Shown here one piece after another: positions 3,372 through 55,335 of a stretch of DNA of 64,000 bases. Source of the DNA: Chiloscyllium plagiosum. Its lineage: Eukaryota. The stretch spans positions 68,313,872 to 68,377,871 of the forward strand of contig NC_057712.1 in the NCBI RefSeq assembly GCF_004010195.1, written 5' to 3'. The notes under the pieces are model-generated. The model saw only the letters and a list, made by a program, of their open reading frames with translations, was not told where the DNA came from and ran no database searches. Each line of letters starts with the position of its first letter. Within the stretch, counting starts at the first letter, position 1. Both the position numbers and the translations under genes were made by a program.

Positions 3372-4234
3372 CACAGATGGCCTCCTTCTTCAAGGACCGC
3401 AATTTCCCCCCCGACGTGGTTTACGGTGCCCTCCACCGCATCTCCTCCATTTCCCGCTCCTCCGCCCTTGAGCCCCACCCCTCCAACCGCCACCAGGACA
3501 GAACCCCACTGGTCCTCACCTACCACCCCACCAATCTCCATGTACAGCGCATCATCCGCCGTCACTTCCGCCACCTCCAAACAGACCCAGCACCAAGGAT
3601 ATATTTCCCTCCCCCCCCCTAGCAGCTTTCTGTGGAGACCACTCCCTCCGCGACTCCCTTGTCAGATCCACACCCCCCACCGACCCAACCACCACTCCCG
3701 GCACCTTCCCTTGCAACCGCAGGAGGTGCAACACTTGCGCCCACACCTCCCCCCTCACTTCTCTCCAAGGCCCCAAGGGAAACTTCCATATCCGCCACAG
3801 ATTCACCTGCACCTCCACCCACATCATCTACTGCATCCGCTGCAGCCGGTGTGGCCTCCTCTATATTGGGGAAACAGGCCGCCTACTTGCGGAGCGATTC
3901 AGGGAGCACCTCTGGACCACCCGGACGAACCAACCCAATCACCCTGTAGCTCCTGACCTGCAGTCTTCTTCTTGACCTCTCCGCCTCCATCCTACTCCGA
4001 CCTATCACCCTCACCTTGACCTCTTTCCACCTATCACATTTCCAACGCCCCTCCTCCAAGTCCCTCCTCCCTACCTTTTATCTTCTCCTGCTGAACACTC
4101 TCTGCTCATTCCTGAAGAAGGGCCTGTGCCCGAAACGTCGAATCTCCTGTTCCCTGGATGCTGCCTGACCTGCTGTGCTGTTCCAGCAATAAAGTTTCAA
4201 CTTTGATCTCCAGCATCTGCAGACCTCACTTTCT
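3372..4234 (+). mobile_element. 5'-truncated Penelope-like element (Neptune-type): GIY-YIG endonuclease remnant plus 3' pseudo-LTR
   Basis: Frame +1 reads PGTFPCNRRRCNTC...IIYCIRCSRCGLLYIGETGRLLAERFREH (Cys-rich linker plus GIY-YIG); flanked by a perfect 15-bp direct repeat CATCAATCATGACAA (3357-3371, 4235-4249). Confidence 0.9.
4108..4143 (+). ncRNA. Minimal type I hammerhead ribozyme motif in the PLE pseudo-LTR
   Basis: ATTC-CTGAAGA-A-GGGC-CTGT-GCCC-GAAA-C-GTC-GAAT: stem I ATTC/GAAT, core CUGANGA, stem II GGGC/GCCC, GAAA, palindromic ACGT in place of stem III, GUC cleavage triplet. Confidence 0.8.
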
Positions 4235-5561
4235 CATCAATCATGACAAGTCAGAAACAGATGTCTAATGCAAACGGGATACCCACAGTGAGTGGAAATT
4301 CACCACTACCACAGAACGCGATTTCAGAAGCTCCAAAGCTAGGGCCACAACAAGGCATAAGCAGAGATTATCCTGTAAGATCAGGAAGGGATAACTTCAC
4401 ATGGGGACTCGTAGCAGAGTTTACCCTTCCAAAATTAGTTTATTCAGCAAGTGCAACACATGATCTCACCTAACCATGTAAAATTTCTGAGAATGCACTC
4501 CCATCATCCCTCATAGATGTAATTCTGCCAACCACTTACAATTACTTAAATTATTCAACAGAGGAAATTTTTGTTTTTTTAAACCTTCTAACTGGCCTCC
4601 CTTGAACACACTGATTCTTTGGGTACTGTAGATAAATATCCCCTGCTCCCTCCTGATCAATTGTCCATTCTTCAGGAATGTATCTATACAGTGTGGGAAA
4701 AAAAGGCTCATGCTCTTGCTCTGCTGACATAATGGAATGGAGCAAGATCACCACAGAGTTATAACCCTGCCTCCACTACAATTCCCAGGATCAGGTATTT
4801 ATATGAAGTAGGCAACTACCTACCATGCAGAGACACAGCTGATAGAGGAGGAGGAAGCTGAACTTCTGATGTTGAACAGTCACTGAAGCAAATAGAAGAG
4901 AGTAGCACAATGGGGCCCTTTTGGTGGAATGCCAGTTTTATCATTCACTGCAGTAATAGCATCAAGAGCATTACTGTCTTAAAGTACTGCACATCTGCTT
5001 CATTCAAATGTACAGTGTATTGGGGAACCAGATGCAGGATGGGAAGGAATTCCATTGGCCATATCATCTCAGCAGTACCACAAAGATAAAATAGATAAAG
5101 TACCCAACTCCTTTAGCTAAGGAAAACTTTAGCTCAGGACTCAGAATGGAGACCAGCATAACAAAACCCTGTGCTAGTTTTCACTCACTCCAATAACCAA
5201 AACCCTCGTAAACCAAATGTAAAACAGGGTTTAGAGCCCTCAAGTGTTTACAAGCTACTTAACTATGCAAGTCATCACATAAAAATACTAAACATCTATA
5301 TTCATTTTTATTTAAACCATGTTACAGTAGGTATCCTGGCTGGGTAGGTCCCCCCACAGGTTAAGCATGGAGGTCAATTGAGCCATTCCACTACCAGTCA
5401 TGTTCAGACTAACTAAACCAGTACTGATGAGGGGTTAAAACTTCAGACATTTTCTTGTTTGCACTTCAAACAGGATATTCATCCAGTGAGGGAGGAATAC
5501 AAAAATGTTAATATCAATGAATAATAAATTTCCATAGAAGAAATGATTCTACAAATCTCAC

Positions 5562-5696
5562 CCATCTTCCAAAGTAAATAGAAAAGGGTTGCTCTGGAGC
5601 GTTATTCGGATCTGTGCCATAGTCTTCAAGTAACCAAAACACATGCTCTGGATTCTTTAGATTCACTGTTCCTTGAAAGGGAAGAAAGTCTAAACT
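5562..5696 (-). CDS. TRMT11: TRMT11 coding exon 6
   Basis: acag|SLDFLPFQGTVNLKNPEHVFWLLEDYGTDPNNAPEQPFSIYFGRW|gtgaga; 135 nt, phase consistent with neighbouring exons. Confidence 0.97.
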
Positions 5697-5984
5697 CTGT
5701 AAAGAACATGAAATAACATTTGAGACAAAATTACATGTTCATCAGAACATTTTTTTTTTACATTTGGACAACTTAGATTATTAGACCAATGCATTGGTTG
5801 GCATGTTAGTCTTGTGATAAAGACAGTATCCAGTACTTTGTATAATCGTCTTATGGAATGGCCCAGGCTTCACTCTTACTTTCTAATATTTATAAAGCAT
5901 TGAAGGCCACCTTTTTAGTTATAAGACATAGGTGATTTATAACCACAGTTTCAGTAGGAAAATTCAGGCTTGGTGAGATTTTTG

Positions 5985-6660
5985 TATTTACTTGTGGATA
6001 TTGTTGGCAGGGCCAGCATTTCTTGCCCTTCCCTAGGTGCTTTTGAGAAGGTGGTGGGTGAGCTGCTTTCTTAAACTGCTGCAGTCCATGTGCTGTAGGT
6101 ACACCCACAATGACATTAGAGAGGGAACTCCAGGATTTTGACTCAGCAACAGTGAAGGAATAGCAATACATTCCCAAGTCAGGATGGTGAGTGGGTTGGA
6201 GGGGGACATGCTGGTGGTGATATTCCCATGTATCTGATACCCTTGTTCTTCCAGATAGAAGTGGTCGTGGGTTTGGAAGGAGCTGTCTAAGGATTTTTGA
6301 TGAACTTCTGCAGTATGTCTTGTAGACAGTACACACTGTTGCTACTGTCTGTCAATGGTGGAATGATTGAATGTTTGTGAATGTAACGCGAATCAAGACA
6401 ACTGTCTTGTCCCTGGTGGCCTTAAGCTAGAGTGTTGTTGGAGCTGAACTCATTCAGGCAAGTGAGGTATATTCCATCCATTGCTGATTTATGCCTTGTT
6501 GATAATGAACAGGTTTTGAGGTGACAGGAGGCCAGTTTGTCCCTGCAAAATTCCTAGCTTCTGACTTGCTGTTGCAGTCATTGTATTTATAAGGCTAGTC
6601 CAGTTCAGTTTCTGGTCAATGGCAATTCTCAGGATGTTGACAGTGGGGGTGTCAGTGATA
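5985..6660 (-). mobile_element. Old LINE 3' fragment (CR1/L2-like)
   Basis: Decayed RT C-terminus (LGVTIDQKLNW-like) and a 3' UTR shared with the copies at about 42700-42950, 20915-21145 and 59870-60010. Confidence 0.6.
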
Positions 6661-7338
6661 GTATTTATCCTTATGCTAATGTGCAGCAACTTAACATACA
6701 CACAACAAATTCTCTCTGACTTCTGTGGACACCCTTTTATTCTGTCCTTGGAATGAGATGTGAATGATACTGAAATTACACATCCCTCAATGCACCAAGA
6801 GGCTGAAGAGTCACCTGTGTAGTGAGGGGCTGAAGACATAAATAAGCCAGGCTAGGCAAAGGCAGTAGGTCCTTTTCATCAACCACTGGTGTCTCAGTTT
6901 AGTGTCTCACACTAACTGGCAGTTGCGTAGTTACTTTCCCGATGAAGAGTCATCATGTATTTCACAAATGAATTGAACTCTGAACCTCGGACTGACTAGC
7001 AAGTCCTATAAACAATAGATTACCCTCACCTTACCCTTAGATCAAAGGATCTTTTGTTATTTTCTTCAGCAAATGCAATTCTTCAAACCAGCAGTCACCC
7101 TTTCCCAATGATTCACTCTGACCTGACAGCAAGTTCTAATCAGTCCTTTCCTAACACACGTGCATCTTACACATTCCCACTCTATCTCCTGGTGTTTCTA
7201 CCTGATGTTCTCTCACAATCTGAGTGACACTGGAAAGCATGGAATGGTACCCACTGCTAGTTGCCCCAAGATGATAATACTGGGTCTTCTCCTTGAAGCA
7301 CTTTAGTCCTTGTAGTGAGGAGTATCTCCCAGATCTAG

Positions 7339-10300
7339 ACAATTGGTGGATCTGAACAAAGAATTAGGATTAGTAGATGTATGGAGATGTCTTCATCCAC
7401 AGGGCAGAGATTTTTCTTTCTACTCCAATCCACATAAATGTCATACCAGAATTGATATGTTTTTTGCCCCCTCGATTTTTTTAAATTCCGTATCATCCTG
7501 TAAAATAGGTAGTATAGCAATTTCCGACCACGCTGCTGTATATATGGAAACTAAGGCGAGGAACAATGGGACATCCCCTCGGCATTGGCGTATGGACCCC
7601 TTCCTAATGAAAGATAGTAAATTTGTAAAGTACTTTGCTCAAGAATTTAAAACTTTTTTAGAAATTAATTCAGGTACGGCTAGCAACCCATCAATGATGT
7701 GGGAGACCATCAAAGCTTACATGCGAGGTTTGATCATGTCCTACTCAGCGACCCAGAAAAAATTGAAGGGAGAACAACAGCGTCTGCTTGAAGCCCGCTT
7801 AAAAGCAGCTGAAACAGCATACACTGACAGACCTTCTATTATTAAATTGCAAAGGATTACGGCTCTTAGGACAGCTCTAAACACTACGCTTACTCAAACG
7901 GCTAAGAGGGAAATATTATTTGCAAAACAAAGGTTATATGAATATGGTGGCAAACCGGGTAGATACTTAGCATTTCTTGCAAAGAAAAGAAAGGCCCCTC
8001 AGACTATTACATCTATCAAGGAAAGTATGGGTATTTTGACTCATGATCATAAAAAGATTAAGGCGATCTTTAGAGAATTTTATTCTGAGTTATATAAATC
8101 GCAGGATTGTGAAGACAGGACTAGGAGGATGCAGTCATTTTTAAAAAAATTGACCTTTCCGGGCCTAACTCCGGAACAGGTATTGGTCCTAAATGCTACT
8201 CTAACAGTCCAAGAAATACTTGATGCAATTAGGCAACTTCAGAGCGGTAAGGCACCGGGCCCAGATGATAAAGAATTCACAGAAATATTGGCTGGTCCAC
8301 TCATGGACATGTATAACTATGCATATAGTCAGGGCTGTCTCCCGCCTTCGCTGAAGGAGGCAAATATCTCTCTTATCCTTAAAAAAGGAAAGTTATCCAG
8401 AAGATTGTGCGTCATAGACCAATATCCTTGCTAAATGTAGATTTTAAAATCCCCTCTAAAACGTTAGCACTGAGATTAGAAAGGATACTGCCACATATTA
8501 TAAAGGAGGATCAGACGGGGTTTAATAAGGGCCGTAGATCATCCAATAATATTAGAAGGGTTTTGAATATGATTCAAGCCTGTCATCAGGGAAAGATACC
8601 ACCAAGAAATAGTTGATGCAATTAGGCACCTTCAAAATGGTAAGGCGCCGGGCCCAGATGGTTTTCAAGCTGAATTCTATAAAGAGTTTACAGAATTACT
8701 GGCTGGTCCACTTATGGACATGTATAACTATGCATATAGTCAGGGCTGTCTCCCGCCTTCGCTGAAAGAGGCAAATATCTCTCTTATCCTTATAAAAGGA
8801 AAGGACCCAGAAGATTGTCCATCATACAGACCAATATCCTTGCTAAATGTAGATTTTAAAATCCTCTTTAAAACGTTAGCACTGAGACTAGAAAGGATAC
8901 TGCCACATATTATAAAGGAGGATCAGACGGGGTTTATTCAGGGCCGTAGATCATCCAATAATGTTAGAAGGGCTCTGAATATGATTCAAGCTTGTCATCA
9001 GGGAAAGATACCAGGAGTAGTGGTTTCATTCGACGCGGAAAAGGCATTTGATAGGGTCGGATGGTCATATTTGTTTTACATATTGGTGAGGTTTGGCGTT
9101 GGACAGGTGTTTACCAAATGGGTCTCAACATTGTATAGTGATCCTAAAGCAGTTGTGGTTACCAATGGATTAGGCTCGGATAGCTTCAGTGTGGGTCGGG
9201 GCTGCCGTCAGGGATGTCCCCTCTCGCCATTGTTATTCACGCTAATAATTGAACCACTAGCAGAAGCTATACGAGCTGATCCTAATATAACGGCCCCGAG
9301 GATTGGTACAGGTAAACATAAAATTACCCTTTATGCAGATGATGTTCTTCTATTCCTCAGTAACCCTTTGATGTCCATACCTCGCTTAATCCAAGTTATT
9401 AATACATTTAGTGCATTCTCAGGCTATAAAATTAATTTTTCAAAATCGGAGGCTATGCCAATGGGTGGTCTTGCTGTGATACCCCGCTTAGCGGACGGTT
9501 CCCTTTTTCCCTTTCGCTGGTCCCTGGGGGGTTTCTTATATTTAGGCATTTTTATTACTCCAGTATTTGGTCAGTTGTATAAGGCTAATTTTGTGTATTT
9601 ATTGGAAAGGATAAGGCAGGACCTCCAGCGATGGGGAGTCCTTCCAATTTCCTGGTTGGGTAGAATAGCACTAATTAAAATGAATGTCCTGCCCCGTCTC
9701 CTTTATCCTATGAGAATGCTTCCGGTGATGCTGTAGAGGACGGTTCTATGTAAATTATATGGCTGGCTGGATTCATAGACGGCCCTTCATTAAGCTGAAG
9801 AAGCTACAGCTTCCACAGGCAAGGGGAGGATTGGACTTCCCAGACTTAAGGAAATATCAGTTAAGTTCCCTATTAAGTTACATAGCTGATTGGGTCTTGC
9901 CTGATCCACAATCAATCTGGTTGGACATCGAGGCCTCTCAAGTAAAATACCCACTTATTAACCTTTTATTTTCAGACAAGAGGAAAATCATTACAGATCA
10001 CTGCAAAAACCCTATAATACTAAACACAATTAAGACTTGGAATATAATGCAGCAAAATGAGAGTAATTCACATAAAACATCCCCCTATGCACCAATAGTG
10101 GGAGCATGGGGATTCCAACCGGGGTTTACAGATGCCACTTTTAAACTCTGGAGATCCAGGGGTATCTCATGTCTCGGGGACCTATTTAAAGATGGGGTCC
10201 TGATGTCTTTTGAACAGCTGCATAAGAAATTCGGATTACCTAATGGAGACCTCTTTCGATACTTCCAAATTCGAGACTACATACAGAGGAAGACTACGTT

Positions 10301-11331
10301 ATTAGATAGTCTTTATAAATCCGATAGAGAATGTAGTGTCCTACGACCAGTGGGGGTATCTTCCGTCAGTACTATTTATCATTTACTACAAGATGAAGTA
10401 TCGGGAGAGATGGATAATCTGCTTAAAACATGGGATCAGGATTTGGGACTAGAAATCTCTATAGAAACATGGAATGATATTTGGGAAAACACTAGAAGAA
10501 TTACTATCTGTAACAGAACCCAGGCTATCCAGCTGAAGATACTTCATAGGGCCCATATAGCACCGGTTCGATTGGCAAAATTTAAGGCAGGAGCATCTCC
10601 GTTTCCCAAATGTAAAATAGAGGTGGGCACTCTTGTACATTATCTACGGAGCTTATGACAGGTCCATAGGCATTGGATTAAAGTAGCAAGTACCCTGACA
10701 GAAATTTTAGGAACGAAAATTAAAGTGGACTCTGTATCTCTCCTTTTGGGCTTTTCAAACTTTCCCTCCCTGGACATGTACGGGAAGAGACTATTCTCTC
10801 TTTCTGTGCAAGGAAAAATATTTTGGTGAACTGGGTGGCTGAGGGCCCCCCTGGAATTTCAAATTGGCACAGATTAATTATGGAATGTATTCCCCTTGAC
10901 TTCCTTACAAATATGGTGCACCGAAAGACCGAATTATTTTATAAAATATGGCAGCCCTTCTTGAATTACATAAATACAGATATTTCGGCTATCCTAACAA
11001 GGGCTTTTATTTAATTGAGATTACAAACCTGGTTGATCCGGGGCCCCTTAGGAGAGGAATCCCACACAAATACGGGTTTTATTACATTTGATGTTAACAC
11101 ATTCCGAGCATGTAAGAGACTTAAATATACACTCTGGTTAGTTGTAGGTTAGATTAGTAGATAGTTGAGTTTTGTTTTTTTTTTCCTTTTTCGGTATTTT
11201 TTCTTTTGTTAAATTTTGGCTATTGTATATTTGATTTAATTGTATATCAATGTTTGTATTTGAGAGTTTTGTTTATTTTTGTAAACTTGTAAAAATGTTA
11301 AATCGCTAATAAAAATATCTATTAAAAAAAA
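7339..11331 (+). mobile_element. 5'-truncated L1-clade LINE: ORF2 (endonuclease end, RT, C-terminal domain), 3' UTR and poly(A)
   Basis: ORF track 7343-8434, 8714-9736, 9759-10658 and 10823-11014 give TRIDMFF, SDH, KAPGPD, YRPISLLN, DAEKAFD, RQGCPLSPLLF, YADD, YLGI; AATAAA at about 11308 and an A-tract at about 11323-11331; disrupted by stops and frameshifts. Confidence 0.95.
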
Positions 11332-15364: not shown

Positions 15365-17480
15365 AATGAATGGTGCTGAACATTGCACAATCATCCACGA
15401 ACATCCCCACTTTTGACTTTATGATGGAGGGAAGATCATTGATGAAGCAGCTAAAGATAGTTGGGTCTAGGACACTACCCTGAGGAACTCCAGCAGAGAT
15501 GTCCTATAGCTGAGGTGATTGACCTCCAACAACCACAACCATTTTCCGATCATAGGATCATTGAATCCCTACAGTGTGAAAACAGGCTATTTGGCCCAAC
15601 AAGTCCACACCAACCCTCCAAAGAATAGCCCACCCCAGACCCATTCCCCCACCTTGTTACTCTACATGTTTCCTGACTAATACACCTAACCTACACAAAC
15701 CTGAACATGATGGGCAATTCAGCATGGCTGATTCACCTAACCTGCATAATCTTTGCACTGTGAGAGGAAACTGGAGCACCTGGAGGAAACCCATGTAAAC
15801 ACAGGGAGAATGTGCCAACTCCACACAGACAAATGCCCAAGGCTGGAACTGAACCCAGGTCCCTGCCACTGTGAAGCAACAGTACTAACCACTGAGCCAT
15901 CGTGGCACCCAATGTGTCAGGCATGACGCAAAACAGTGGAAAGTTTTACCTGATAACCTTTGATTCCAGTTTTGCTAAGGTTCTTTGATGCTGCACATGG
16001 TCAAATGCAGCCTTGATGTCAAGGGCTGTCACTCTCACCTTACTGCTGGAATTCAGTTCTTTTGTTCATGTTTGAACGAAGGCTAGAATGTGGTCTGGAG
16101 CCGAGTGACCTTGGTGACCCAAACCGAGTGTCTCTGATCAGTTTATTGCTGAGCAATTGCTACTTGATAGCACTGTTGGTGACACCTCCCATTACTTTAC
16201 TGATGATTGAGATTAGACTGATGGGCAATAATTTGCTGGGTTGGATTAGTCCTGCTTTTTGTATCCAGGACATACCTGAGTAATTTTCCACATTGTCAGG
16301 TAGATGCCAGTGGAACAGCTTGGCTAGGGGAGCAGCAAGTTCTGGAGCACAAATCTTCAGTACTATTGGCAGAATGTTGTCAGGGCCCATAAGTTTTCTG
16401 TCTCTAGTACCCCCAAACGTTTCTTGATATCTCGTGCAGTGACTCGAATTGGCTGAAATCTGGTACCTGTGATGCTGGGATCAATGAAGGAGGCCCACGT
16501 GGATCATCCAAATGGCACGTCTGGCTGAAGATTGCTTAGAATGTACAGCTTTATCTTTTTCACTGATGTATTGGGCTCTTCCGCCATTTACAATTGGGAT
16601 ATATATGTAGTTTTCGCTTCCACTGAGTTGTTTAATTGTCCACCACAATCCACGACTGGATGTGGCAGGACTGCAGAGCTTAGGTCTGATCCATTAGATG
16701 GGTCGGGGAGTCCAGAACAAGAAGGCATAGGTTTAGGGTGAGAGGGGAAAGATATAAAAGAGACCAAAGGAGCAACTTTTTCATGCAGAGGGTGGTACGT
16801 GTATGAAATGAGCTGCCAGAGGATGTGGTGGAGGCTGGTACAATTGCAACATTTAAGAGGTATATAATTAGGAATGGTTTGGAGGGATATGGGCCGGGCG
16901 CTGGCAGGTGGGACTAGATTGGGTTGGGATATCTGGTCAGCATGGACAGGTTGGACCGAAGGGTCTGTTTCCATGCTGTACATCTCTATGACTCTATGTG
17001 GGATCACATCACTCTGTCTATCACTTGCTGCTTATGCTACTTGGCACACAAGTAGTCCTATTTGGTAGCTTCAACGGGTTCACACCTCATTTTTAGCTTT
17101 GTATGGTGCTGCTCTTGGCATGCCTTCCTGCACTGTTCATTGAACCACGATTGATCTCTGGCTTGATAGTAATGGTTGTTCAGAGGATATGCCAAGCCAT
17201 GAGGTTACAGTTTGTGTTGGAGTACAATTCTGCTATTGATGGCCCACAGTGCCTCCTGGATAAAGTGAGGACTGCAGATGCTGGAGATCAGAGCTGAAAA
17301 ATGTGTTGCTGGAAAAGTGCAGCAGGTCAGGCAGCATCCAAGGAGCCCTTCTTATGCCTGAAACGTCGAGTGCCTCCTGGATGCCAGTCTTGAGTTGCTA
17401 GACCTGTTTGAAGTCTGTCGCATTTAGCACAGTGATAGCACTATTCAACACAATAGAGGGCATTCCTAATGTGAAGGTGG
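15365..17480 (-). mobile_element. Old CR1/L2-like LINE ORF2 remnant hosting nested insertions (SINE 15555-15908 minus; CR1 3' end 16700-16997 plus; PLE fragment 17262-17368)
   Basis: MGPDNILPIVLKICAPELAAPLAKLF...PISLISIISKVM in ORF 16160-16390; the PLE fragment is flanked by a 14-bp direct repeat AGTGCCTCCTGGAT (17248-17261, 17369-17382). Confidence 0.75.
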
Positions 17481-17744: not shown

Positions 17745-17957
17745 GGAGAAAGTGAGGTCTGCAGATGCTGGAGATCAAAGTTGAAACTTTATTGCTGGAA
17801 CAGCACAGCAGGTCAGGCAGCATCCAGGGAACAGGAGATTCGACGTTTCGGGCACAGGCCCTTCTTCAGGAAGAAGGGCCTGTGCCCGAAACGTCGAATC
17901 TCCTGTTCCCTGGATGCTGCCTGACCTGCTGTGCTGTTCCAGCAATAAAGTTTCAAC
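17745..17957 (-). mobile_element. Fold-back PLE pseudo-LTR mini-element (perfect 89-bp inverted repeat) with a hammerhead motif
   Basis: Arms 17779-17867 and 17870-17958 with a 2-nt spacer; matches the PLE end at 4110-4234; 15-bp TSD TATATGGTAGTTTAA (17730-17744, 17958-17972); intact hammerhead on the minus strand at 17839-17872. Confidence 0.92.
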
Positions 17958-39508: not shown

Positions 39509-39553
39509 TCACTCATCCGGAAGAGACTTTAGATTTTCAATCAATTTGTCAAC
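39509..39553 (-). CDS. HINT3: HINT3 coding exon 5 (terminal)
   Basis: ccctaag|VDKLIENLKSLPDE-TGA; phase 0, fits exon 4. Confidence 0.85.
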   Translation of the reverse strand, partial: VDKLIENLKSLPDE

Positions 39554-40375: not shown

Positions 40376-41052
40376 CTGTAAACCAATCCAATACTTTTGT
40401 AACAATTCTGATGATAATCTGGGATAGCACAAAAATCACAGCATAAAGCTTCAAAGAGAAAGCTGAACTAAGGCAATTAAATTCATCCAGAAAATATTAC
40501 ATTTATTCATGTTAAAATTTATAGCTTCAGTGTAATTTAAATAATAAACTTGTGAAAATAATGCAACCAAAGTTATAGGTAACTTCAATGTTTATTGTAA
40601 AATTAAAAACGAAGAGATGTTAATGTGCTGGGTGTTATTTTAATACTATTTTGTTATTGCCATTTGCAGTTCTTTACAGAATGTTTAGTTAGACAGAGGG
40701 GATAATTATTCAGTAGATTACATCACAGCACATGCCTGCGAGTAGCATGTAAATAGGCAATATTTCTCACAGTAACTGTGTGCTAGCTTCCGTAAGCAAT
40801 GTAATTTATTCAGCTACAAAGTGAATACCAACACATTTCAATGAATGTTGCTTCACACAATTCAACTTAAATATTCACTAAATCATAGTTTATTATTTTT
40901 AAATGGTCGGAGCTTTGTGCATGCCTTTTTGGAAGATTACATAAAAAAAACCATAGGTAGCTATCAAACAAACAAATGTCATAACCATAACTTTTTCAGA
41001 ATCATATTTGGTTATCAAGCACCCCTTTTATATTCTGGAGTACTGTACATAC

Positions 41053-41122
41053 CTTATATCTGCCAGGTCATTCATGCCATTTTGTTGCAGTACACTTTTT
41101 CCAATGTTCACCATCTTTTGAA
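41053..41122 (-). CDS. HINT3: HINT3 coding exon 3
   Basis: aatag|(V)QKMVNIGKSVLQQNGMNDLADI AG|gtatgt; 70 nt, phases match both neighbours. Confidence 0.94.
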
Positions 41123-41574
41123 CTATTCATTAAAACAATTTTGTAATTAGTTATAGCATAACATAACCAAAAAGCATGTACACTAAAAGCAACATGTAAA
41201 ATAAAAACAAATAATGTAAAACTACAATTTACTTTTCATAATTTAGAACATAGTCCTCTCCCATTTTATCAGCCAGTTGTTCAATCACTTTCCAGGCACA
41301 CGCAGGCAATGGGTCAATAAGGTACCTTACTACATCTCATTCCTACTACTGGGACACTGGTAAAATTAAGTAGCCCACAAATAAAGGCAGTACCTAGTAC
41401 TGGCAACATTAGGACATGAGTTAAACTGAAAGATCACTAATCATCTTGTCCCTCTGAAATGCTAACACAGAGCAGACAGCAGTCACAACAACAAAACACG
41501 GCAAAACATTACAAAACAAACAGGAGAAAATTAATATTGCATCCAAAGGCTTACACAAGTCTGCTTTGTATTTT

Positions 41575-42950
41575 AAATAAGAATGTAGAAAATTGCCCAA
41601 GTATGCCCCGTACACAAATAACAGAACAAATCCAAACCAGCCAATTGCCACCCTATCAATTTATTCACAATCATCAGTAAAGAGATGGTCGGTGACATCA
41701 ACAATGCAATCAAGCAGCACTTACTCAGCAATAACCTGTTCAGTGACGCCCAGTTTGGGATCCACCAGGGCCACTCAGTTCCTGACCTCATTACAGCATT
41801 GGTTCAAACACGAACAAGAGAGCTGAACTCCATTGGTGAGGTGACAGTTATAGTCCACATTCAGTTGAGTGTGGCAAAACACCCAAGCAAAACTGGAATC
41901 GATGGGTATTGGTGGCAAACTCTCCACTGGATGATCTCAAAACTGACACATAGGAAAATGGTCATGGTTGTTGGAAATCAATTATTTCAGCTCCAGAACA
42001 TCTCTGCAAGAGTTCCCCAGTGTGGTATCCTCAGCCAAACCAACTTCAGCTGTTTTATCCGTTCCCTCCATCGTAAGGTCAGAAGTGGAAATGTTTGCCA
42101 ATGAGTGCCCAATATTTAGCACCATTTGTAACTCCTCAAATACTGAAGCAGTCCATGCTGAAATACCACAAGATCTGGACAATATCCAGACTGGGCTGGC
42201 AAATAGTAAGTAACATTCACTCCACACAAATGTCAGGCAATGATCATCTCCAATGAGAGATAATGTAATCATCACCCCTTGACATTCATTAGTGTCACCA
42301 TCACTACTACATCATCATTCCCCACTCTCAACATCCTTCGGGTTACCAGTGACCAGAAAGTCAACTGGACTCATCACATAAACACAAACAGCAGATCAGA
42401 GGCTAGGAATTCTGTAACAAGTAATTCACCTCCTGACTCCCCAAAGCCTGTCCACCATCGACAACATGCAAGTCAGGGGTTTAATAGAATACTCCCCACT
42501 TGCCTGGATAGGTGCTACTCCAACAATAATTAAGAAGCTTGATAGCATCCAGGACAAAGCAGCACTCTATCTACAAGCAACCACTCCCTCCATGGGCAAT
42601 GCTCAGCAGCTATGTGTACTATCTACAAGATACATTGCAGAAGTTCACGAAAGATCCTTCCAAACCCCTGACCACTTCTGTCGAGAAGGACAAGGGCAGC
42701 AAATAACACAGGAACACCACATCTGCAATTTGCCCTCCAAGCCACTCAGCATCTGACGGAAATATATTGCGGTTCTTTGACTGTCACTCGGTCAAAATTC
42801 TGAATTCCCTCCCCAAGGGCATTTTGGGTCAAACTACAGCATATGGATTGCAGTGGTTCAAGAAGGTAGCTCACCAGCTCCTTCTCAAAAGTAACTAGGG
42901 GACAGCCAATAAATGCCGGCCCAACAATGATGCCCATGCCCACGAGTGAA
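41575..42950 (+). mobile_element. Old CR1/L2-like LINE RT and 3' UTR remnant
   Basis: AIKQHLLSNNLFSDAQFG, VPQCGILS, DQKVNWT, LIEYSPLAW. Confidence 0.8.
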
Positions 42951-43566
42951 AAAGATCAATTTAATATCCCTGCCCTTTGTTATTAGTCCATCCAAGATAG
43001 TGCAATATTATGCACAGATAATTGGGTATGCTAAATGTGATTCAAATTACTGAAAGTGATCACTGAAGACAAGTACTGTAGCACACTGACGACAAATACT
43101 GTAGCTTGTGCACCATTCCAACCAGAATACATCCGTCATTCTGTGTAAACAAAAGTTTATACTACTGCTGATACTACAAAGCATCAAATATTACACAAGG
43201 AAAAATAAATCAATATTGCCACATATGCAATCCACATACTGGGGTACTCAGGTAAGCTATAATTCAACAGAAGCCGTTTACGAGACAAGGGTGCTAGTAG
43301 AAGCTTGTGCTGGAAACGGAAATTAAATAGAATTTTCAGATGTGACCATTACGCAATCATATCACCAAACTAATCATTTATATTTAGGACTTAATGCATC
43401 TATTGCATTTAAACTCGCTCTTTGGCCTATCAGAGTTCATCCAAAGAGCTGTATTTTTGAAGTACGTTCACAAAATGTATTTATAAAGCCTCTACAAGCA
43501 CAGTTCAAATGAAAGATAATGAAGTGTTGTTATATGATCTGAACAACAAAGTGAATGCAATCTCAC

Positions 43567-43684
43567 CCACTGATATATGCTCCTTCTTCAGAGATTTGCA
43601 ATTTGCAATGTGTTTTCTTGGTACAACAAGATAATGATGGGGCGCACCAGGGCGAATGTCCCTAAAGCAAGCAAACTGGTCATC
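43567..43684 (-). CDS. HINT3: HINT3 coding exon 2
   Basis: gtgcag|DDQFACFRDIRPGAPHHYLVVPRKHIANCKSLKKEHISV G|gtgaga; 118 nt. Confidence 0.97.
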
Positions 43685-44899
43685 CTGCACAAAAACAAAT
43701 TAGCATTTTAATATCTCTGATGACTTACTTAATAAAGATCGTGTCACTTAAGAAATAAATGTGGTCTTTTGGTCATAATTATTTTAAATTTCTCAGCTAC
43801 ATATCCATTTGATACAGCTGGTTAAAATATAAAAGCAAAATTCTCCATTCGTTCAAGATCTGAATTGCTGGAAGTGGTTAGGTCTACCATCATAGCATAT
43901 ACTTTCTTTTATTCATTTATAGGATTTCACTAGCAAGGCCAGCATTTAATGTCCATCTCTAACTGTTCTCAAAATGGCAGAGAGATGTCTTTTTGAACTG
44001 TTGAAACCACATGACGGAGGGAGGGGATTCTTCGAGTTTCACGTCAAAATCATTCTGACTTGGAAGATAAAATGTTGTTTGTAGTATACTATGCTCTTGT
44101 TCCTGTAAGTGATAGAGGTTGCAGGTCAGGAAGGTGGTTTCGAAGGTGTCTTGCAGGCTGCTATTGTGCAGCTGTCATCAGGCACTGGCATTATAAGGAG
44201 TGAATATTTAAAGTTGCAGGTAGGGTGCCAATCATGTTCTGACCTGGATGATGTTGGGCTTCCTGAGTATTGTTGGAGCTGAACTAATTTAGTTAAGTGG
44301 GAAGTATTAAATCACACTTCTGTCTATTTTGTAGATCCCTCTTCAATTTCAAAATGCTCTATATAATCTAGCTGTTTGACTGGGCTTTTTTTCCCTCCTT
44401 GGCTTCCCCTTCAAATTGGGCAACTACCCTATAAAGAGTTGTAAAGGATTCTTTTGAAAGTGTAGCTTCTACACAATGCAAAATGGAATATGATCATGCA
44501 TTATGATTTGTAGATATTCTAAATGTAAATTTAATTGTAAATTATTTTTAGTTGAAGGTTTATCAGATTAGTTGCACAAATGTTGGAGAAACTATTCCCA
44601 TTCATAATATAATCAAGACCCACAGGGCACAGATTTAGTGTCTTTGTAAAAGAAGTAAATGCAAGATGAGAGAGAACTTTTTTCCCACAATGAGATATTA
44701 GGGTCTGGAACGCACTGCCTAGATGTGGGGCAGATTGAATTGTGGCACTCTGGAGTGCTTTAGATGATTATTTGAAAGAAACCAATGTGAAGGATTATGT
44801 AGCAAAGGAAGATTGTGACTGCACCATTTTAGCTTAGTGCCAATGAAGTGAATGGTCTCCTTTAGTGCCATAACAAAACTGCAATTCTAATACCAATCA

Positions 44900-46130
44900 T
44901 GTGAAGCAGTTGTCCACACAAAGCAGGAAAAATCAACCAGCCAATTATCACCCCATCAGTCAACTCTCAATCATCAGCAAAATGATGGAAAGGGTCATCC
45001 ACCGTGCTATCAAGCAGCACTAAGCAGTAATCTGCTGGTTCTTAATTTGGCTTTCAGCACCACTCAGCTCCTGACTTCATTACAGCATTGGTACAAACAT
45101 GTGCAAAAGATTTGAACTCCAGAGGTGAGTTAGAAGTTGAGGTGAGGTTGTCCTTGATACCAAGGTTGTATTTGACCAACTGGGGCATCAAGGAGCCCTA
45201 GCCAAACTGGAGTCATGGGATTCAGGACAACTTTCCACTGATTGGAGATAAAGGAAAATCATTGTGGTTATTCAAGGTAAATAACCTCAGTCTTGAAACA
45301 TCCCTGCAAGCGTTCCTCAGGGTTGTCTCCTGGTCCATCTTTATCTAATTCAATGACCTTTCTTCCATCACAAAGTTAGAAGTGGGAAGGATCGTTAATG
45401 ATTGCAAATATAGCATTCAGCATCATTTGTGACTCCTCAGATAGTGAAGCAGGGCACACAAGTGCCAGCCATGGATTACCTCCAACAAGGGAGAATCTAA
45501 ACCATCATCATTTGATATTCAGTTTGTATTACCATCGCTGAATCCTTGATTATTAACATTTTGTGGTTTGCCGTTGATCAGAAACTGAAGTTGTCCTGCT
45601 ATATAACTATTGTGGCTACAAGAGCAAATCAGAAACTCAGGAAATAAAAACCAAAAGTACTGCGGATGCTGTAAACCAGAAACAAAAACAGAAGTTGCTG
45701 GAAGAGCTCAGCTGGTCTGGCAGCATCTATGAAATCAGAGTTAATGAGTTCAGAGGAAGGGTCACTGGACGTGAAAAATGAACTCTGATTTCACAGATGC
45801 TGCCAGACCTGCTGAGATTTTCCTGGAATATCTGTTTTTGTTTCAGAGATTAGGGATCCTGCATTGGGAAACTTGCTTGCTAACTCCCTAAACTTCACCA
45901 CCATATTCAAGGTACACACTGGCATTACTGAATGCTCCCGACTACGTGGATGGCTGCAGCTTCAACACTCAAAAAAGCTTCATAGCCTTAGGTCAAAGCA
46001 GTCTATGTGACTGTCCCCATATGGAATACTTTCAATATTCAATCCTTTTACTGAGGCACAGTAGCAGCAGTGTATACCATATACAAGATGTACCAAATAC
46101 ATAGGAACATCACTACCTACAAGTTTACTT
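44900..46130 (+). mobile_element. Old CR1/L2-like LINE remnant with a nested fold-back PLE mini-element (about 45642-45843)
   Basis: Same family as 41575-42950; the nested inverted arms about 45680-45742 and 45781-45843 surround a decayed hammerhead CAGAGGAAGGGTCACTGGACGTGAAA. Confidence 0.65.
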
Positions 46131-46689
46131 CACTTCTAAGCCATTAGCCTCACTCTGAATTTTCTTTTCAGTCAGTCATGGGATGTGGGCATCTCTGGCT
46201 AGGCCAGCATTTATTGCCAACCTCTAATTGCCTGCAGGGCAGTTAAGCGTCAACCATATTGCTATAGGTCTGAAGTCACACATTGGCCAGACCAGCTGAG
46301 AATAACAGAGCTCCTTCCCTAAAGGACATTAGTGAACCAGATAGGTCTTTCCCCGACAAGTGGTAATGATTTCATGGGTGTTACTAAACCCTTAATACCA
46401 AAATACTTATTGAATTGAGATTCCACCATCTGCCATGGCAGGATTTGGACTAGAGTCCCTGGAACAGTAGCTCAGTTTCTAGATTTACAGTCTAGCAAAC
46501 ATCACTGGGCCATTGCTTCTCCCAGGCAAATATATCACTGTTCCTTCAATGTTGCTTGGACAAGATCCTAGAATGATTTTCCTAACAGAATTGTGGATCT
46601 GCCTGCACCAAATGGACTGCAGTGGTTCAAGAAGGCAGCCTGAAGGCAACATGTCACAAATATTACTTGCCACTTGTCAGTGCAAACCT

Positions 46690-47325
46690 GGCATTATCCA
46701 GGTGCATTTGAACTTGGACTGATGCAGAATCTGATGAATCTCAAATGGCGCTAAATATTGTGCAATCACCCTAAGGAACTCCTGCTGTGATGTTCTAGAG
46801 CTGAGATGACTGATCACCAACAATTATAACCAACTTCCTATATGTCAGGTACAAGTCCAAACAGCTGAGAGTTTGCACCCTGCTTCCCATTGCTTCCAGT
46901 TTTGCTTGGGCTCCTCGATGCAACACCCTGGTTGAATGCAGTCTGGATGTCAAGGAATGTCATTCTCACCTCGCCTCTGGAATTCAGCTCTTTTGTCCAC
47001 GCTTGAACCAACGGTTTAATGAGGTCAAGAGCTGAGTGGCCCTGGTGGAACCCAAACTGGGCATCGCCGAGCAGATTATTGCTGAGCAGCTGCTGTTGAT
47101 GGCACCTTCTATCACTTTACTGATGATTGAGAGTAGACTGATGGGCTGGTCATTAGCTGGGTTGGATTTGTCCTTTTTTTGTGTGTACAGGACAATATGT
47201 GTACCTGGGCAATTTTCCACATTGTTGGGTAGATGTTGTAATTGTACTGAGCCAGTTTGGCTCAGGAACTGGCAAGTTCATTGGGCTTAAGTCTTCAGTA
47301 CTAATGTCCGTGAATGTCAGGGCCA
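46690..47325 (-). mobile_element. Old CR1/L2-like LINE remnant
   Basis: KKDKSNPANDQPISLLSIISKVIEG in ORF 46984-47220. Confidence 0.7.
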
Positions 47326-47329
47326 TACC

Positions 47330-47822
47330 ACCATCTTACCCACAAATACATTGTTTTCACACACACACACACGTTTGTGGGTGAATTTGTACTTGCAGAC
47401 TTACATGTTATTTTGCTCAAAAATTGTATGAATCCATATAAGAATATGTAAATCCAATTTTTAGATTAGAATCAGTCTGAACATTGGGGCACAGACAGTC
47501 TCACACCTTCAGTGCATTATCTGGGCTAACATGGTTAAAGTTCACATGAAAATGTAACATTAAGAAAGTTTTGCATGCCCATTCTAAAAGATGAGCGACT
47601 TAACAAACAATCCTGGTATTTTTCAATATATAATTTCAGTTACATCACACTGTAAACTTTTGCTATAAATTCTGTGACCTACGATCTTATACTCCACAAC
47701 CACCTGATGAAGGAGCAGCACTCTGAACTAGTGCTTCCAAATAAACCTGTTGGACAATAACCTGGTGTTGTGTGATTTGTAACTTTGTCCTCCCCAGTCC
47801 AACACCTGCGCCTCCACATGCT
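47330..47822 (+). mobile_element. PLE-type pseudo-LTR region (family of 28955-29562)
   Basis: TATAATTTCAGTTACATCACAC...CACCTGATGAAGGAGCAGCACTCTGAACTAGTG...CCTGGTGTTGTGTGATT shared with 29410-29560. Confidence 0.65.
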
Positions 47823-47832
47823 TTTCTTTAAA

Positions 47833-48135
47833 CAGCACAGTGGTTAACACTGCTGCCTCACAGCGCCAGAGACCCGGGTTCAATTCCCGCCTCAGGTGAC
47901 TGACTGTGTGGAGTTTGCACGTTCTCCCCGTGTCTGCGTGGGTTTCCTCCGGGTGCTCCGGTTTCCTCCCACAGTCCAAAGATGTGCAGGGTCAGGTGAA
48001 TTGGCCATGCTAAATTGCCCGTAGTGTTAGGTAAGGGGTAAATGTAGGGATATGGGTGGGTTACGCTTCGGCGGGTCGGTGTGGACTTGTTGGGCCGAAG
48101 GGCATGTTTCCACACTGTAAGTAATCTAATCTAAA
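47833..48135 (+). mobile_element. Young HE1-like SINE in HINT3 intron 1
   Basis: CpG-retaining head CAGCACAGTGGTTAACACTGCTGCCTCACAGCGCCAGAGACCCGGGTTCAATTCC and an AATCTAATCT tail ending about 30 bp from the splice donor. Confidence 0.9.
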
Positions 48136-48165
48136 TAAATGTTTCAAACACTTCCGCCGCCTCAC

Positions 48166-48330
48166 CCAATGCAGCAAATCCACCGACTCCTCTCTATTCC
48201 CGATTCTACAAAAGATGCATTTTTTATCAAATTCCGGATAGGCCGCTCCCGAGGCCCCGGCCTCAGACTTTTCTGCGGCCGCAACCGGGCCCGCAGTGTC
48301 CCCATCATCCCCGACACCAACCGCCGCCAT
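48166..48330 (-). CDS. HINT3: Histidine triad nucleotide-binding protein 3, coding exon 1
   Basis: gccATGG Kozak; MAAVGVGDDG...FDKKCIFCRIGNREESVDLLHW|gtgagg; CxFC motif; the five exons total 525 nt (174 aa plus stop). Confidence 0.95.
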
Positions 48331-48337: not shown

Positions 48338-48520
48338 GCGCCGATCAATGGAGCCCGGAGAACACCGATCCGCACCGACCAATGGAGCCCAGAGGCCGCC
48401 CATCCGCACCGACCAATCGAGCCCAGAGGGCACCGATCAATGGAGCCCAGAGGCCGCCCATCCGCACCGACCAATCGAACCCAGAGGACACCGATCCGCA
48501 CCGACCAATCGAGCCCAGCG
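48338..48520. repeat. 34-bp GC-rich minisatellite with CCAAT boxes immediately upstream of the HINT3 ATG
   Basis: Unit approximately CCGACCAAT(C/G)GAGCCCAGAGG(ACACCG/CCGCCC)ATCCGCA; (C/T)CAAT at 48345, 48379, 48413, 48437, 48471, 48505 (spacing 34, 34, 24, 34, 34). Confidence 0.92.
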
Positions 48521-50584: not shown

Positions 50585-50869
50585 TTTAAAAGGTAATTAT
50601 GTTGTATTTGCATGTGTTTAAACGGAATTAAATGTTGTGTTTCAAATTAAATTTCAGTGCATGAGGATTTCACGTTGTCAAACCACTGACAATTCAAAGA
50701 ATGTGCTAGCAAAGCAAAGTCTTGGAACGTGAGAGAACTACTAGCCATTGTGAAACTGCCTTCCACAGGAACAGAAACTTTCACCAGAAGAGAAGGTGGG
50801 GTCAGTGAACTCACAAAGCTGAACGGCACCTCAGAGGGGAAGAGCTGTCAGTGCCAGATACATTGACAA

Positions 50870-51530
50870 GCAGGAGGCTGTAAGAACACAAGCCACACAG
50901 CTGGAGAAGCCAACATTTTGATTGTAACCCTTCTTCAGGACTCGGGGTGTGGGTACGGGGAGCTACAGATAAAAGGTGGGGGTGTGAGGGAAGGTTTTAG
51001 ATGGGGAGAAGGACAGAGTGGTGAGGTCAGGATTGGTGAACACAGGTTGAGGGTACGACCTGGTTGGTCGATTGGAGAAATGAATCCAGTAGGTAGCTAT
51101 CCTCCAAGGAGCAACACCTCATCTTCGGCCTAGATAGCCTACAGCCCGGAGGACTCAACATTCGGGTCTCCAATTTCAAATAGCCTCCCTTCCTATCCCC
51201 CGTCTGCCTTTCCAGCACCTCCTCCTCCCTTCCATTCCTCTGACTGACCCTTCCTTCTAGCTATCAATCGGATTCATTCCTCCCATCGACCAACAAGGTC
51301 ATACCCTCTACCTGTGTGCACCCATCCCTACCTCATCAGTCCACCCCTGTCCCCATCCAAATCTACCTCCCCACCTCCCCACTTTATCTGCAGCTCCTTT
51401 TACATCCCCCACCAGTCCTGAAGAAGGGTTACACCTGAAACATTGACTTCTCCACCTCCTGATGCTGCCTGGCTTGCTGTGTTCTCCCAGCCTCTTGTTT
51501 CTCTATCCTGGATTCCAAGATGTGCAGTTT
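50870..51530. mobile_element. Neptune-type PLE 3' fragment with an inverted pseudo-LTR
   Basis: About 50870-51085 is the reverse complement of about 51270-51500; decayed hammerheads AGTCCTGAAGAAGGGTTACACCTGAAACATTGACT (51414-51449) and at 50911-50942 on the minus strand. Confidence 0.75.
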
Positions 51531-51864: not shown

Positions 51865-52507
51865 GAATTGGTGTTGCAGATGTTTCGTCCCCTGTCTAGG
51901 TGACATCCTCAGTGCTTGGGAGCCTTCTGTGAAGCGCTTCTGTGTTGTTTCCTCCGGCATTTATAGTGGTTTGTCTCTGCCGCTTCTGGTTGTCAGTTCC
52001 AGCTGTCCGCTGTAGTGGCCGGTATATTGGGTCCAGGTCGATGTGTTTGCTGATAGAATCTGATAGATGAGTGCCATGCCTCTAGGAATTCCCTGGCTGT
52101 TCTCTGCTTGGCTTGTCCTATAATACTAGTGTTGTCCCAGTCGAACTCATGTTGCTTGTCATCAGTGTGTGTGGCTACTAAGGATAGCTGGTCGTGTCAT
52201 TTCGTGGCTAGTTGGTGTACATTGATACGGATCGTTAGCTTTGTTTCTGTTTGTCCTATGTAGTGTTTTGTGCAGTCCTTGCATGGGATTTTGTACACTA
52301 CGTTGGTTTTGCTCATGCTGGGTATCGGGTCCTTTGTCCTGGTGAGTTGTTGTCTGAGAGTGGCTGTTAGTTTGTGTGCTGTTATGAGTCCTAGTGGTCG
52401 CAATAGTCTGGCTGTCAGTTAAGAAATGTTCTTGATGTATGGTAACGTGGCTAGTCCTTTGGGTTGTGGCATGTCCTCATTCCGTTGTCTTTCCCTTAGG
52501 CATCTGT
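51865..52507 (-). mobile_element. Penelope/Poseidon-type PLE 3' fragment: GIY-YIG endonuclease plus hammerhead motif
   Basis: TLPYIKN...NVVYKIPCKDCTKHYIGQT...RINVH...HEFDW...REFLEAWH; 3' GCA-CTGAGGA-T-GTCACCT-AGAC-AGGGGAC-GAAA-C-ATC-TGC at 51915-51876. Confidence 0.88.
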
Positions 52508-53625: not shown

Positions 53626-53698
53626 TGCTTCTGTCTGGTTTTGAACAGGGGACCATTCGCATGTTAGGCAAGTGTGACAACCACTACACTACAGAGAC
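53626..53698 (-). pseudogene. Decayed tRNA-Val(AAC) copy
   Basis: GTCTCTGTAGTGTAGTGGTTGTCACACTTGCCTAACATGCGAATGGTCCCCTGTTCAAAACCAGACAGAAGCA, 73 nt, colinear with vertebrate tRNA-Val-AAC as I recall it, with about 14 substitutions, many at CpG; B box altered (GTTCAAA); no T-run terminator. Confidence 0.85.
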
Positions 53699-53702
53699 AT
53701 AT

Positions 53703-54128
53703 GGCACGTTGGCTCAGTGGTTAGCACTGCTGCCTCACAGCACCAGGGTCCCAGGTTCGATTCCAGCCTCCGGTGACTGTTTGGCGTTTGCATATTCTCC
53801 CTGTGTCTGTATGGGTTTCCTCCCACAGTCCAAAGATGTGCAGATCAGGTGAATTAGCCATGCTAAATTGCCCATAGTGTTAGCTGCACTAGTGAGAGGG
53901 AAATGGGTCTTGGTGGGTTACTCTTCGGAGGTCGGTGTGGACTTAGAGTCATAGAGATGTACAGCATGGAAACAGACCCTTCGGTCCAACCTGTCCATGC
54001 CGACCAGATATCCCAACCCAATCTAATAGCATCTGCCAGCACCTGGCCCATATGCCTCCAAACCCTTCCTATCCATATGCCTTGTTGGGCCAAAGGACCT
54101 GTTTCCACGCTGCAGAAAATCTATTCTA
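53703..54128 (+). mobile_element. HE1-like SINE interrupted by an antisense CR1 3' end (about 53945-54080)
   Basis: The SINE body breaks at GTGTGGACTT and resumes CTTGTTGGGCC after the AGAGTCATAGAG... insert. Confidence 0.85.
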
Positions 54129-54189
54129 TTAAGGTCATATTACAAACATCAGAAAGATTCATCGCTTTTACCTTAGCAATGACCTTACA

Positions 54190-55335
54190 ACATAGAGTCA
54201 GAGTTTTGACAGTTCAGAAAGAGGTCCTTTGGCCTATTGTATCCACACTTGTCATCAAATATCCAACTGTTCTTATCCCATTTCCCAGCATATGACCCAT
54301 AGCTTTGTCTGCTATGGCATTTCCAATGGTCATCTAAGTAATTCTTAAATATTCTGGGGGTTACTGCTTCTATCATTTTTCCAGACAGTGAGTTCCAGAT
54401 ACCCACAGCCCTCTCTGATTTTTCTTTCCTTCTAATCCCCTTTAAACTTCTTGCTTCTCACTTTAGGACTGTGTCTGTTGGTTAGTGACCCCTCTACTAA
54501 CAGGCAAAGTTCGTCTCTATCTATCCTGTCTATTCCCCATAGAAACTTGTACACTTCAATCAAGCCCTCCCTCAGTTTGCAGAAACAAAAACAGAAGTTG
54601 CTGGAAAAGCTCAGCAGGTCGGGCAGCATATGTGGAGAGTTGACGTTTTGGGTCCAGTGACCCTTCCTCAGAACCTCCCTCAGTTTTGTCTGCTCTAAGC
54701 AAAACAACTCCAGCCTAGTTAGTCTCTTAATAACTGAATCGCTCCAGCCCAGCCAGTATCCTGGTGAATTTCCTCTGCATGCTCTCCAGTGCAATCACAT
54801 CACTCCTACAGTGCAGGTGGATCAGAAGTGCAAAAAGTACTCTCGTTGTGGCCCAGTTAATATTATATACAGCTCCAACATAACCTCCTTGTTCTTGCAT
54901 TCAATGCCTTGACCAATAAAAGCAAGTATCCTGTCTGCCTTCCTGACCACTTCTCTACCTGTCCTGCTGCCTTCAAGGATCTATGGGCATGCACACCAAA
55001 GGTCCCTCCGTACTTCCTAGAGCCCTGTCATTCAATGTGTATTGCCTTGCTTTGTTAGTTCTCCCAAAGTCCATCACTTTACACTTTTTCAGCCCATATG
55101 ACCAGCCCATCTATATCATCCTACTGACTAAGGCTTTACCACACTCCTTGTTTTTCACCATAACATCAATTTTCATGAAATTCTCAATGTTTATAGCTCC
55201 GACAATAATGTCTGGAACATTAAAGTGCGAGCAAGGGACCCAACACCGTGGTACATTACTGGACACAGGATTCCAATCAATCTGCAAAATTGCCCGGGGT
55301 GCCATGGGCTCTTAGTTTCTTAACCAATCTGCTAT
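54190..55335 (-). mobile_element. Old CR1 fragment with a nested 95-bp PLE mini-insertion (54579-54673)
   Basis: CR1 RT C-terminus in ORF 54432-54794; the insert is flanked by a 13-bp TSD CCTCCCTCAGTTT (54566-54578, 54674-54686) and carries GTT-CTGAGGA-A-GGGTC-ACTG-GACCC-AAAA-C-GTC-AAC on the minus strand. Confidence 0.8.

Follow-up and report, generated by a model that had tools for sequence, protein, structure and literature searches.

The hammerhead-like sequences scattered through a 64-kb window of the Chiloscyllium plagiosum genome (the whole stretch of DNA analysed here) are probably minimal type I hammerheads, carried in the terminal repeats of Penelope-like retrotransposons of three lineages, the scattered copies being, as part of the same reading, inert by-products of retrotransposition. 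In the Neptune-type lineages, the 5′ ends of copies pile up at the hammerhead's front edge and not at its cut site; those of Poseidon copies do not.

Hammerhead motifs and their elements in the window

A preliminary description of the window listed ten hammerhead-like sites, and such a sequence was present at all ten. A structural descriptor found two perfect motifs, and six with at most one core mismatch, against none in any of 12 dinucleotide shuffles; the motifs are therefore real and not a product of chance. When up to two core mismatches were allowed, 11 motifs were found in the window versus 0–3 per shuffle (12 dinucleotide shuffles). An Rfam scan gave five matches at E values up to 10, none of them to the hammerhead model. 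Only two of the ten listed copies, 4108–4143 (+) and 17839–17872 (−), were intact, combining the CUGANGA and GAAA-NUH core with stems I and II and no stem III hairpin; elsewhere in the genome, the full set of features was also found in families A/N, B and P, in their intact copies. All five sites that had been put forward as examples were hammerhead-like, but three carried a core or palindrome defect, namely C3>G at 29480–29514 (+), G12>A at 54639–54674 (−) and a broken palindrome (ACAT) at 51876–51915 (−). Two copies lay beyond the list: a decayed one at 29042–29076 (−) and a truncated arm at 17870–17958 (+).

One copy is a 5′-truncated Neptune-type element of family A (3369–4235, +) with a target-site duplication in its flanks. 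It holds an ORF remnant (3472–3972, +) encoding a C-x4-C-x2-C linker and a GIY-YIG endonuclease (PF01541, E 1.2e-4), followed by the intact hammerhead at 4108–4143, with a stem I of 4 bp, a stem II of 4 bp and an ACGT palindrome. Its predicted cut falls after C4139, as the preliminary description had placed it. The second intact motif, 17839–17872, belongs to the same family (100% identity over 127 bases) and lies in an insertion whose two arms are arranged head to head as a hairpin (17746–17958) and whose target is duplicated; its minus arm has a tail, and its plus arm (17870–17958) lacks both the tail and C3/U4. Nearby, 17259–17370 (−) is a tail fragment, rearranged and without an intact core, from a related family of the Neptune group. 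Family B is represented by an inverted insertion with an AGCT palindrome (28940–29563), in which the minus-strand hammerhead has two core changes, and by a copy at 47581–47832 (+) whose motif (47701–47736) has a palindrome deletion. Family C comprises a decayed copy starting at core position C3 (11527–11610, +) and two copies head to head (50862–51506) with decayed motifs at 50907–50942 (−) and 51414–51448 (+), and family D an old inverted insertion (45647–45844; decayed motif about 45746–45786, +) and the copy at 54582–54674 (−), which starts at stem I and carries G12>A. The Poseidon-type 3′ fragment (51876–52475, −) has a GIY-YIG remnant at about 52053–52475, then the hammerhead at 51876–51915.

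The window thus holds three lineages (five families), two of Neptune type and one Poseidon. The groups around 4108, 11527/50911/51414 and 45750/54639 form one lineage with a downstream tail common to all, so that the motifs do not all have unrelated stems as had been claimed, although covariation between families was borne out. The proposed Penelope-like origin held, each of the three lineages being tied to a GIY-YIG gene upstream of the motif. Families A and B appear to belong to the Neptune clade, with a C-terminal GIY-YIG domain preceded by a C-x2-5-C-x2-C linker (the definition given in the available text of PMC8557442): the linker precedes GIY-YIG upstream of 4108, a relative carries an RT domain, and a Neptune-type ORF lies upstream of one family B copy elsewhere in the genome. 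The 51876 family has a Poseidon-type ORF upstream, whose translated GIY-YIG domain (PF01541, E 0.013, below the curated cut-off) lacks the Cys linker, and is assigned on these sequence features to the Penelope/Poseidon clade. Further hallmarks of Penelope-like elements were a tail at one end, an inverted truncated partner and partial tandems. A search of the genome for a full-length (master) element recovered none, the long open frames being runs of N or partial copies.

The minimal type I architecture with a palindrome was supported, including the palindrome at 15.1–16.1, the unpaired base after A9 and the G10.1–C11.1 pair. Among intact sampled motifs, the palindrome was ACGT in 51/52 Neptune-group and 8/8 Poseidon motifs and AGCT in 10/10 of family B, in a scan that itself required a palindrome. 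The stems covaried between families as described earlier: pairs 1–2 of stem I and 1–3 of stem II were paired in all of 10 family representatives, and four of these five positions showed 3–5 pair types, the representatives being related to each other so that shuffle values for covariation are not probabilities. These pairs were counted on core anchors, since a MAFFT alignment did not place the 3′ halves of different families correctly. At stem I pair 4, paired in 5/10 representatives, compensatory change was unsupported, and in the commonest family pair 3 of stem I was mismatched (38/52 intact Neptune-group motifs). Predicted energies do not favour the hammerhead dimer, which comes out at −13.1 kcal/mol, compared with −14.2 for two monomers and −18.3 for the best alternative dimer.

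Genome-wide copies and their ends

The suggestion of a very large genome-wide load was upheld. Pattern matching over the whole genome (3.56 Gb) gave 135,932 core-intact matches, with 10 in the control, a density of ~38 per Mb, and the 32-mer at 4112–4143 alone had 12,076 exact copies. Among 72 copies spanning the motif, the core was intact in 37 and lost in 35. Core CpG positions had decayed fastest (0.76–0.85), and the other fixed core positions (0.92–0.97) were similar to unvarying flank positions. After insertion the copies look to decay like neutral DNA, and most of those in the genome are likely inert leftovers.

The 5′ ends of 88 of 192 Neptune-group copies fell within −10 to +4 of core C3, versus seven in the 30 positions just upstream. 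In the same interval were the ends of 21/30 copies of family A, 14/30 of family B and 2/30 of Poseidon, in 30-locus sets that are not independent as they hold both arms of some insertions (19/30 with an inverted partner). The ends were ragged over about 15 bases, with the first base of stem I as the modal start (19/55 direct junctions), and the 3′ ends lay at two fixed places, 4201–4203 (10/30) or 4235 (15/30). In R2, the ribozyme cut itself makes the 5′ end, whereas the boundary here precedes the predicted cut by about 30 bases. A splice-acceptor origin of the boundary was rejected for family A, as there is no AG directly before 4108. Of 39 non-arm rows, sorted by eye out of 100 listed rows, 24 had a G just before the first base of stem I (expected 26%), as a copied cap would leave, but this signal was weak in a local control (7/19).

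In a bolder reading, which we hold somewhat less likely than not, the Neptune-type hammerhead doubles as a transcript start, capped RNA beginning at the first stem I base and run-off from the upstream repeat on uncleaved RNA yielding >100,000 ribozyme-headed mini-copies. By analogy with the green anole Poseidon element PAc (Frangieh et al. 2024, PMC11167929), the element protein would nick both target strands, and reverse transcription would begin inside the element RNA at two sites, 60–95 bases behind the ribozyme. It is about as likely as not that Neptune-type transcripts start at the hammerhead front edge, in which case priming in the upstream repeat would run off the 5′ end of the uncleaved RNA and leave solo or hairpin copies of 95–130 bases, which would then decay neutrally. 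The fold itself was probably selected in master elements; there, copies in tandem would be cut as a dimer held by the palindrome and assisted by the protein.

The pile-up might instead come from structure, if reverse transcriptase or a 5′ exonuclease were halted by a folded or protein-bound hammerhead as it reached the front edge, or if stem I let the cDNA end snap back. We consider this rather unlikely. The modal start at stem I would suit it, as would the many apparent cut-site starts that join an inverted arm via stem I homology; however, Poseidon copies share the fold without the pile-up, and a polymerase that meets a structure should stall where it enters, on the 3′ side, rather than once it has passed through. 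It is highly improbable that the copies were templated on hammerhead-cleaved RNA, as retrozyme-like circles or unit-length RNA. Although junction breaks coinciding with the cut site (671) outnumbered those three bases upstream of it (148), another 407 lay two bases downstream. All these counts are confounded by microhomology, which on inspection by eye accounted for roughly half of the 100 cut-site rows listed. Of the 192 sampled 5′ ends, only 15 were near the cut.

Fixed ends, target duplications and very high copy numbers (exact downstream probes found 18,614 and 21,872 copies, versus 187 continuing past the tail) might suggest that the short copies form non-autonomous, SINE-like families distinct from the longer ones, each with masters of its own. 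This is improbable, given the ragged 5′ ends, the copies in every young family that reach upstream towards the ORF, and the 98–100% identity of short and long family A copies over their common stretch, the 30 loci leaning against it. The preliminary description had further inferred a large load of latent self-cleaving RNAs, several in introns, weighed here as a pool acting in host transcripts. The intact cores are numerous and direct tandems exist, including one array of five motifs. Moreover, five of ten window motifs are intronic, in TRMT11 (2131–24989, −; seven exon matches in the window) and HINT3 (39512–48330, −; five exon matches), by intron calls made from protein homology only. However, four of the five are antisense to the host gene (4108 and 11527 in TRMT11; those at 45647–45844 and 47581–47832 in HINT3 intron 1), and the fifth (17839–17872, sense in TRMT11) is inside a predicted hairpin (−189.5 kcal/mol). 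The motif at 29480 was not counted as intronic because a search for an upstream exon of the ABRA-like ORF found none. A direct-repeat partner within 3.5 kb accompanied only 8/70 intact motifs and an inverted one 31/70, none of the window's intact motifs was in direct tandem, and single minimal motifs are reported not to have cleaved in vitro (PMC4209133). With the neutral-looking decay, these observations weaken the proposal of a latent load, which we regard as decidedly improbable; the presence of copies in introns stood, but not their relevance there.

Relation to known elements and significance

The arrangement of minimal hammerheads at the ends of Penelope-type elements is already known. 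Cervera and de la Pena 2014 (PMC4209133) describe them in the pseudo-LTRs of metazoan Penelope-like elements, including Neptune and Poseidon elements of fishes, and work by Lunse et al. on the same motifs is cited in PMC6765202. The present motifs share with those in the former source the core boxes, extra base after A9, G10.1–C11.1 pair, short stem I, palindrome in place of stem III, covarying families and mostly solo or opposite-strand copies. They differ in number (135,932 versus about 9,000 in Xenopus and 4,000 in coelacanth, with different descriptors) and in the pile-up of copy starts, which its available text does not describe. As in PAc (PMC11167929), where two internal reverse-transcription starts give the tail, there are two fixed 3′ ends; extension of both strands, uncleaved RNA as main substrate and a ribozyme needing protein are counted as further likenesses. 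Unlike in PAc, a Poseidon element, the front-edge boundary here occurs in Neptune-type families only. Non-LTR retrozymes of animals (PMC7229834; bioRxiv 10.64898/2026.07.22.740005) likewise have high numbers of type I hammerheads, kinship to Penelope repeats and short tandem arrays. However, retrozymes consist of repeats in tandem, and those of axolotl have canonical motifs, whereas the motifs here are mostly minimal and solo or inverted; hammerheads in consecutive tandem units were found in a few arrays elsewhere in the genome. For axolotl the count is 126,247 type I hammerheads, by our division over 28.21 Gb roughly 4.5 per Mb, and the density here exceeds the counts seen in the papers compared. 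As in R2 and L1Tc (PMC6765202), a ribozyme heads the retrotransposed unit, although theirs are HDV-like.

The finding carries little weight for host regulation because the copies look neutral. The role of the hammerhead in Penelope-like elements is still open according to PMC8557442 and PMC11167929. This genome contains a very young family whose motifs are identical, as well as tandem arrays of natural origin and a boundary at the ribozyme that is clade-specific, so that standard cleavage assays and the mapping of RNA ends could now put that role to the test. If the hammerhead does double as a transcript start, the ribozyme would stand foremost in the RNA as a switch for cap removal or processing, and transcription starts could be read off from the ends of genomic copies, with Neptune differing from Poseidon.

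Hammerhead motifs, element families and host genes in the window

The hammerhead motifs of the window are real, belong to an already known kind, are unusually abundant and are probably mostly inert. Hammerhead-like sequence was present at all 10 sites listed in the preliminary description. When a structural descriptor demanding both core boxes, the palindrome, at least four stem II pairs and at least three stem I pairs was applied, two motifs were perfect (4108–4143 on the plus strand and 17839–17872 on the minus strand) and six had at most one core mismatch, with none in 12 of 12 shuffles. The two perfect motifs represent a single family (127 bases identical). They were also the only intact ones among the five examples showcased earlier, the others being damaged by C3>G at 29483 (29480–29514), G12>A (54639–54674, minus) or a broken palindrome (51876–51915, minus). 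Rfam returned no hammerhead model for the window motifs and only five matches, all weak. Matches to tRNA (53626–53698, minus) and U6 (35260–35316, minus) were under the gathering scores; the latter sits within a LINE-like ORF and is probably a chance match.

Ten family representatives anchored on the core were compared for stem covariation. Pairing was complete (ten of ten) at the first two stem I pairs and the first three stem II pairs; stem II pair 4 was paired in nine, stem I pair 3 in eight and stem I pair 4 in just five. Each fully paired position except the fixed G10.1 pair showed three to five pair types. Compensatory change between families was thus observed, to which no probability can be attached because the representatives are kin. 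In the 1.375-Mb genomic sample, stem I pair 3 was a U-U mismatch in the most abundant Neptune-group families and a matched pair in young family A.

Clades were assigned by the linker and GIY-YIG features described in PMC8557442. On these features, family A, to which 4108–4143 belongs, is judged a Neptune-type element: its copy at 3369–4235 has a C-x4-C-x2-C linker, a GIY-YIG domain and a duplicated target, and a relative has the RT domain. Groups 11527/50911/51414 and 45750/54639 have the family A downstream tail in common and appear to be older relatives. In family B (29480, 29042–29076 minus and 47704), the palindrome is AGCT and the 3′ region is long; one copy elsewhere, itself without the motif, reaches a Neptune-type ORF. 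Upstream of the 51876 motif lies a GIY-YIG remnant without the Cys linker, as in the Poseidon type. The association of hammerheads with Penelope-like elements, fish Neptune and Poseidon elements included, is already published (PMC4209133).

Two host genes lie on the minus strand, TRMT11 (24989 to 2131; seven exon matches, best named matches from cartilaginous fishes) and HINT3 (48330 to 39512; five exon matches, sole match from a shark). Between them, an ABRA-like (Costars) ORF of ~150 codons occupies the plus strand (30128–30598); nine full-length homologs used as queries revealed no upstream exon, so it could be a short paralog with one exon. A frameshifted L1-like element with an RT (PF00078) lies in a TRMT11 intron (7319–10658, plus), and a 34-base tandem repeat (48341–48518) immediately precedes the HINT3 start codon.

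Genomic load and decay of the copies

The proposal of a very large genome-wide load was borne out. In the 3.56-Gb genome, the exact 32-base family A motif occurred 12,076 times (control 0), and a generic core-intact pattern, which misses decayed copies as well as stems of the Poseidon type and sets no condition on stem I, matched 135,932 times (control 10). Six regions totalling 1.375 Mb held 56 matches to this pattern, as well as 70 intact motifs that passed a structure check (52 from the Neptune group, 10 from family B and 8 Poseidon). Published counts include, for minimal hammerheads, ~9,000 for Xenopus and ~4,000 for the coelacanth (PMC4209133); a coral has >6,000 motifs and the axolotl 126,247 canonical ones (PMC7229834).

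The dispersed copies are probably not functional. Ends were mapped for 192 Neptune-group copies; 72 of them run across the motif in ungapped register, and 37 of the 72 kept the core. Conservation was 0.76–0.85 at core CpG positions and 0.92–0.97 at other fixed core positions, which decay like unvarying flank positions; the decay pattern is neutral. A core no better conserved than its flanks, which the preliminary description had named as counting against it, was accordingly found in part; this applies to the copies and not to the master elements. Nor was its suggestion of latent self-cleaving RNAs, several of them in introns, supported: besides this neutral decay, four of the five intronic motifs (4108, 11527, 45750 and 47704) run antisense to their host gene, and the fifth (17839–17872), in sense, lies inside a hairpin predicted at −189.5 kcal/mol.

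In vitro, lone minimal motifs showed no cleavage and dimers little (PMC4209133). For the anole ribozyme, the element's protein was required and the ribozyme was dispensable for insertion (PMC11167929). A family A dimer is not favoured by nearest-neighbour energies, and the partners found within 3.5 kb of the 70 intact motifs were direct in 8 and inverted in 31. Natural tandems do occur: the terminal repeat of family A forms direct arrays at loci L315 (1263–2434; G000:C8 near 24.16 Mb; five motifs) and L313 (2445–2650). These arrays, with two to five intact hammerheads spaced ~200 bases, are retrozyme-like, and dimers are possible there in principle.

Copy ends and a proposed template boundary

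A probe downstream of the family A motif found 18,614 copies, of which the first 30 loci were examined; in all end counts, both arms of one insertion count as two. The 3′ ends fell at 4201–4203 in 10 loci, at 4235 in 15 and elsewhere in 5, and these two sites agree with the anole element, which has a tail and two internal start sites (PMC11167929). The 5′ ends were non-random, lying at 4106–4118, the front edge of the hammerhead, in 21 of 30 loci, 22–34 bases ahead of the predicted cut. The corresponding count in family B was 14 of 30. In the genomic sample, 192 of 196 Neptune-group copies gave 5′ ends (four were left out for N or no partners): 88 within −10 to +4 of core position C3 and 7 in the preceding 30 positions, with 34 falling within the motif, 15 close to the cut, 10 beyond it and 38 still farther upstream. 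Many partial tandems (L141–L170) pass from the ORF start directly to the front edge, with the boundary of solo copies. Counted as a check for copies templated on cleaved RNA, junctions numbered 671 at the predicted cut, 148 at the position three bases upstream and 407 at the one two bases downstream, many via microhomology. Many listed hairpin insertions join one arm's end to the 3′ strand of the other arm's stem I, which suggests cDNA snap-back through stem I.

We propose that the element's protein would prime reverse transcription within the terminal repeat, using either a single target strand or both and yielding solo or head-to-head copies, and that in Neptune-type families the template would be uncleaved and end at the front edge. 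Such an end could be a stop imposed by the fold alone; Poseidon copies serve as a control and argue against this, with only 2 of 30 5′ ends at the front edge and 24 of 30 reaching more than 40 bases upstream. For Neptune-type families, a transcript start at the front edge is the simplest reading, to which we give an even chance. Positions 4106–4112 may fit an initiator consensus. The start sites of Penelope and Chlamys-3 fall in the terminal repeat (PMC2377424, PMC8557442). In 24 of the 39 rows unexplained by an inverted arm, the base directly ahead of stem I was a G (the remainder of 100 listed, 61 having been set aside by eye; expected 26%). This would fit a copied cap, a reading that is suggestive at best because the local control across families had the preceding G in only 7 of 19.

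Our literature search, mostly of open-access main texts, found nothing on these motifs in a shark and no description of a ribozyme boundary specific to one clade; one chondrichthyan with retrozymes is covered by a 2026 preprint (10.64898/2026.07.22.740005). Of the leads here, only the ribozyme boundary deserves follow-up.
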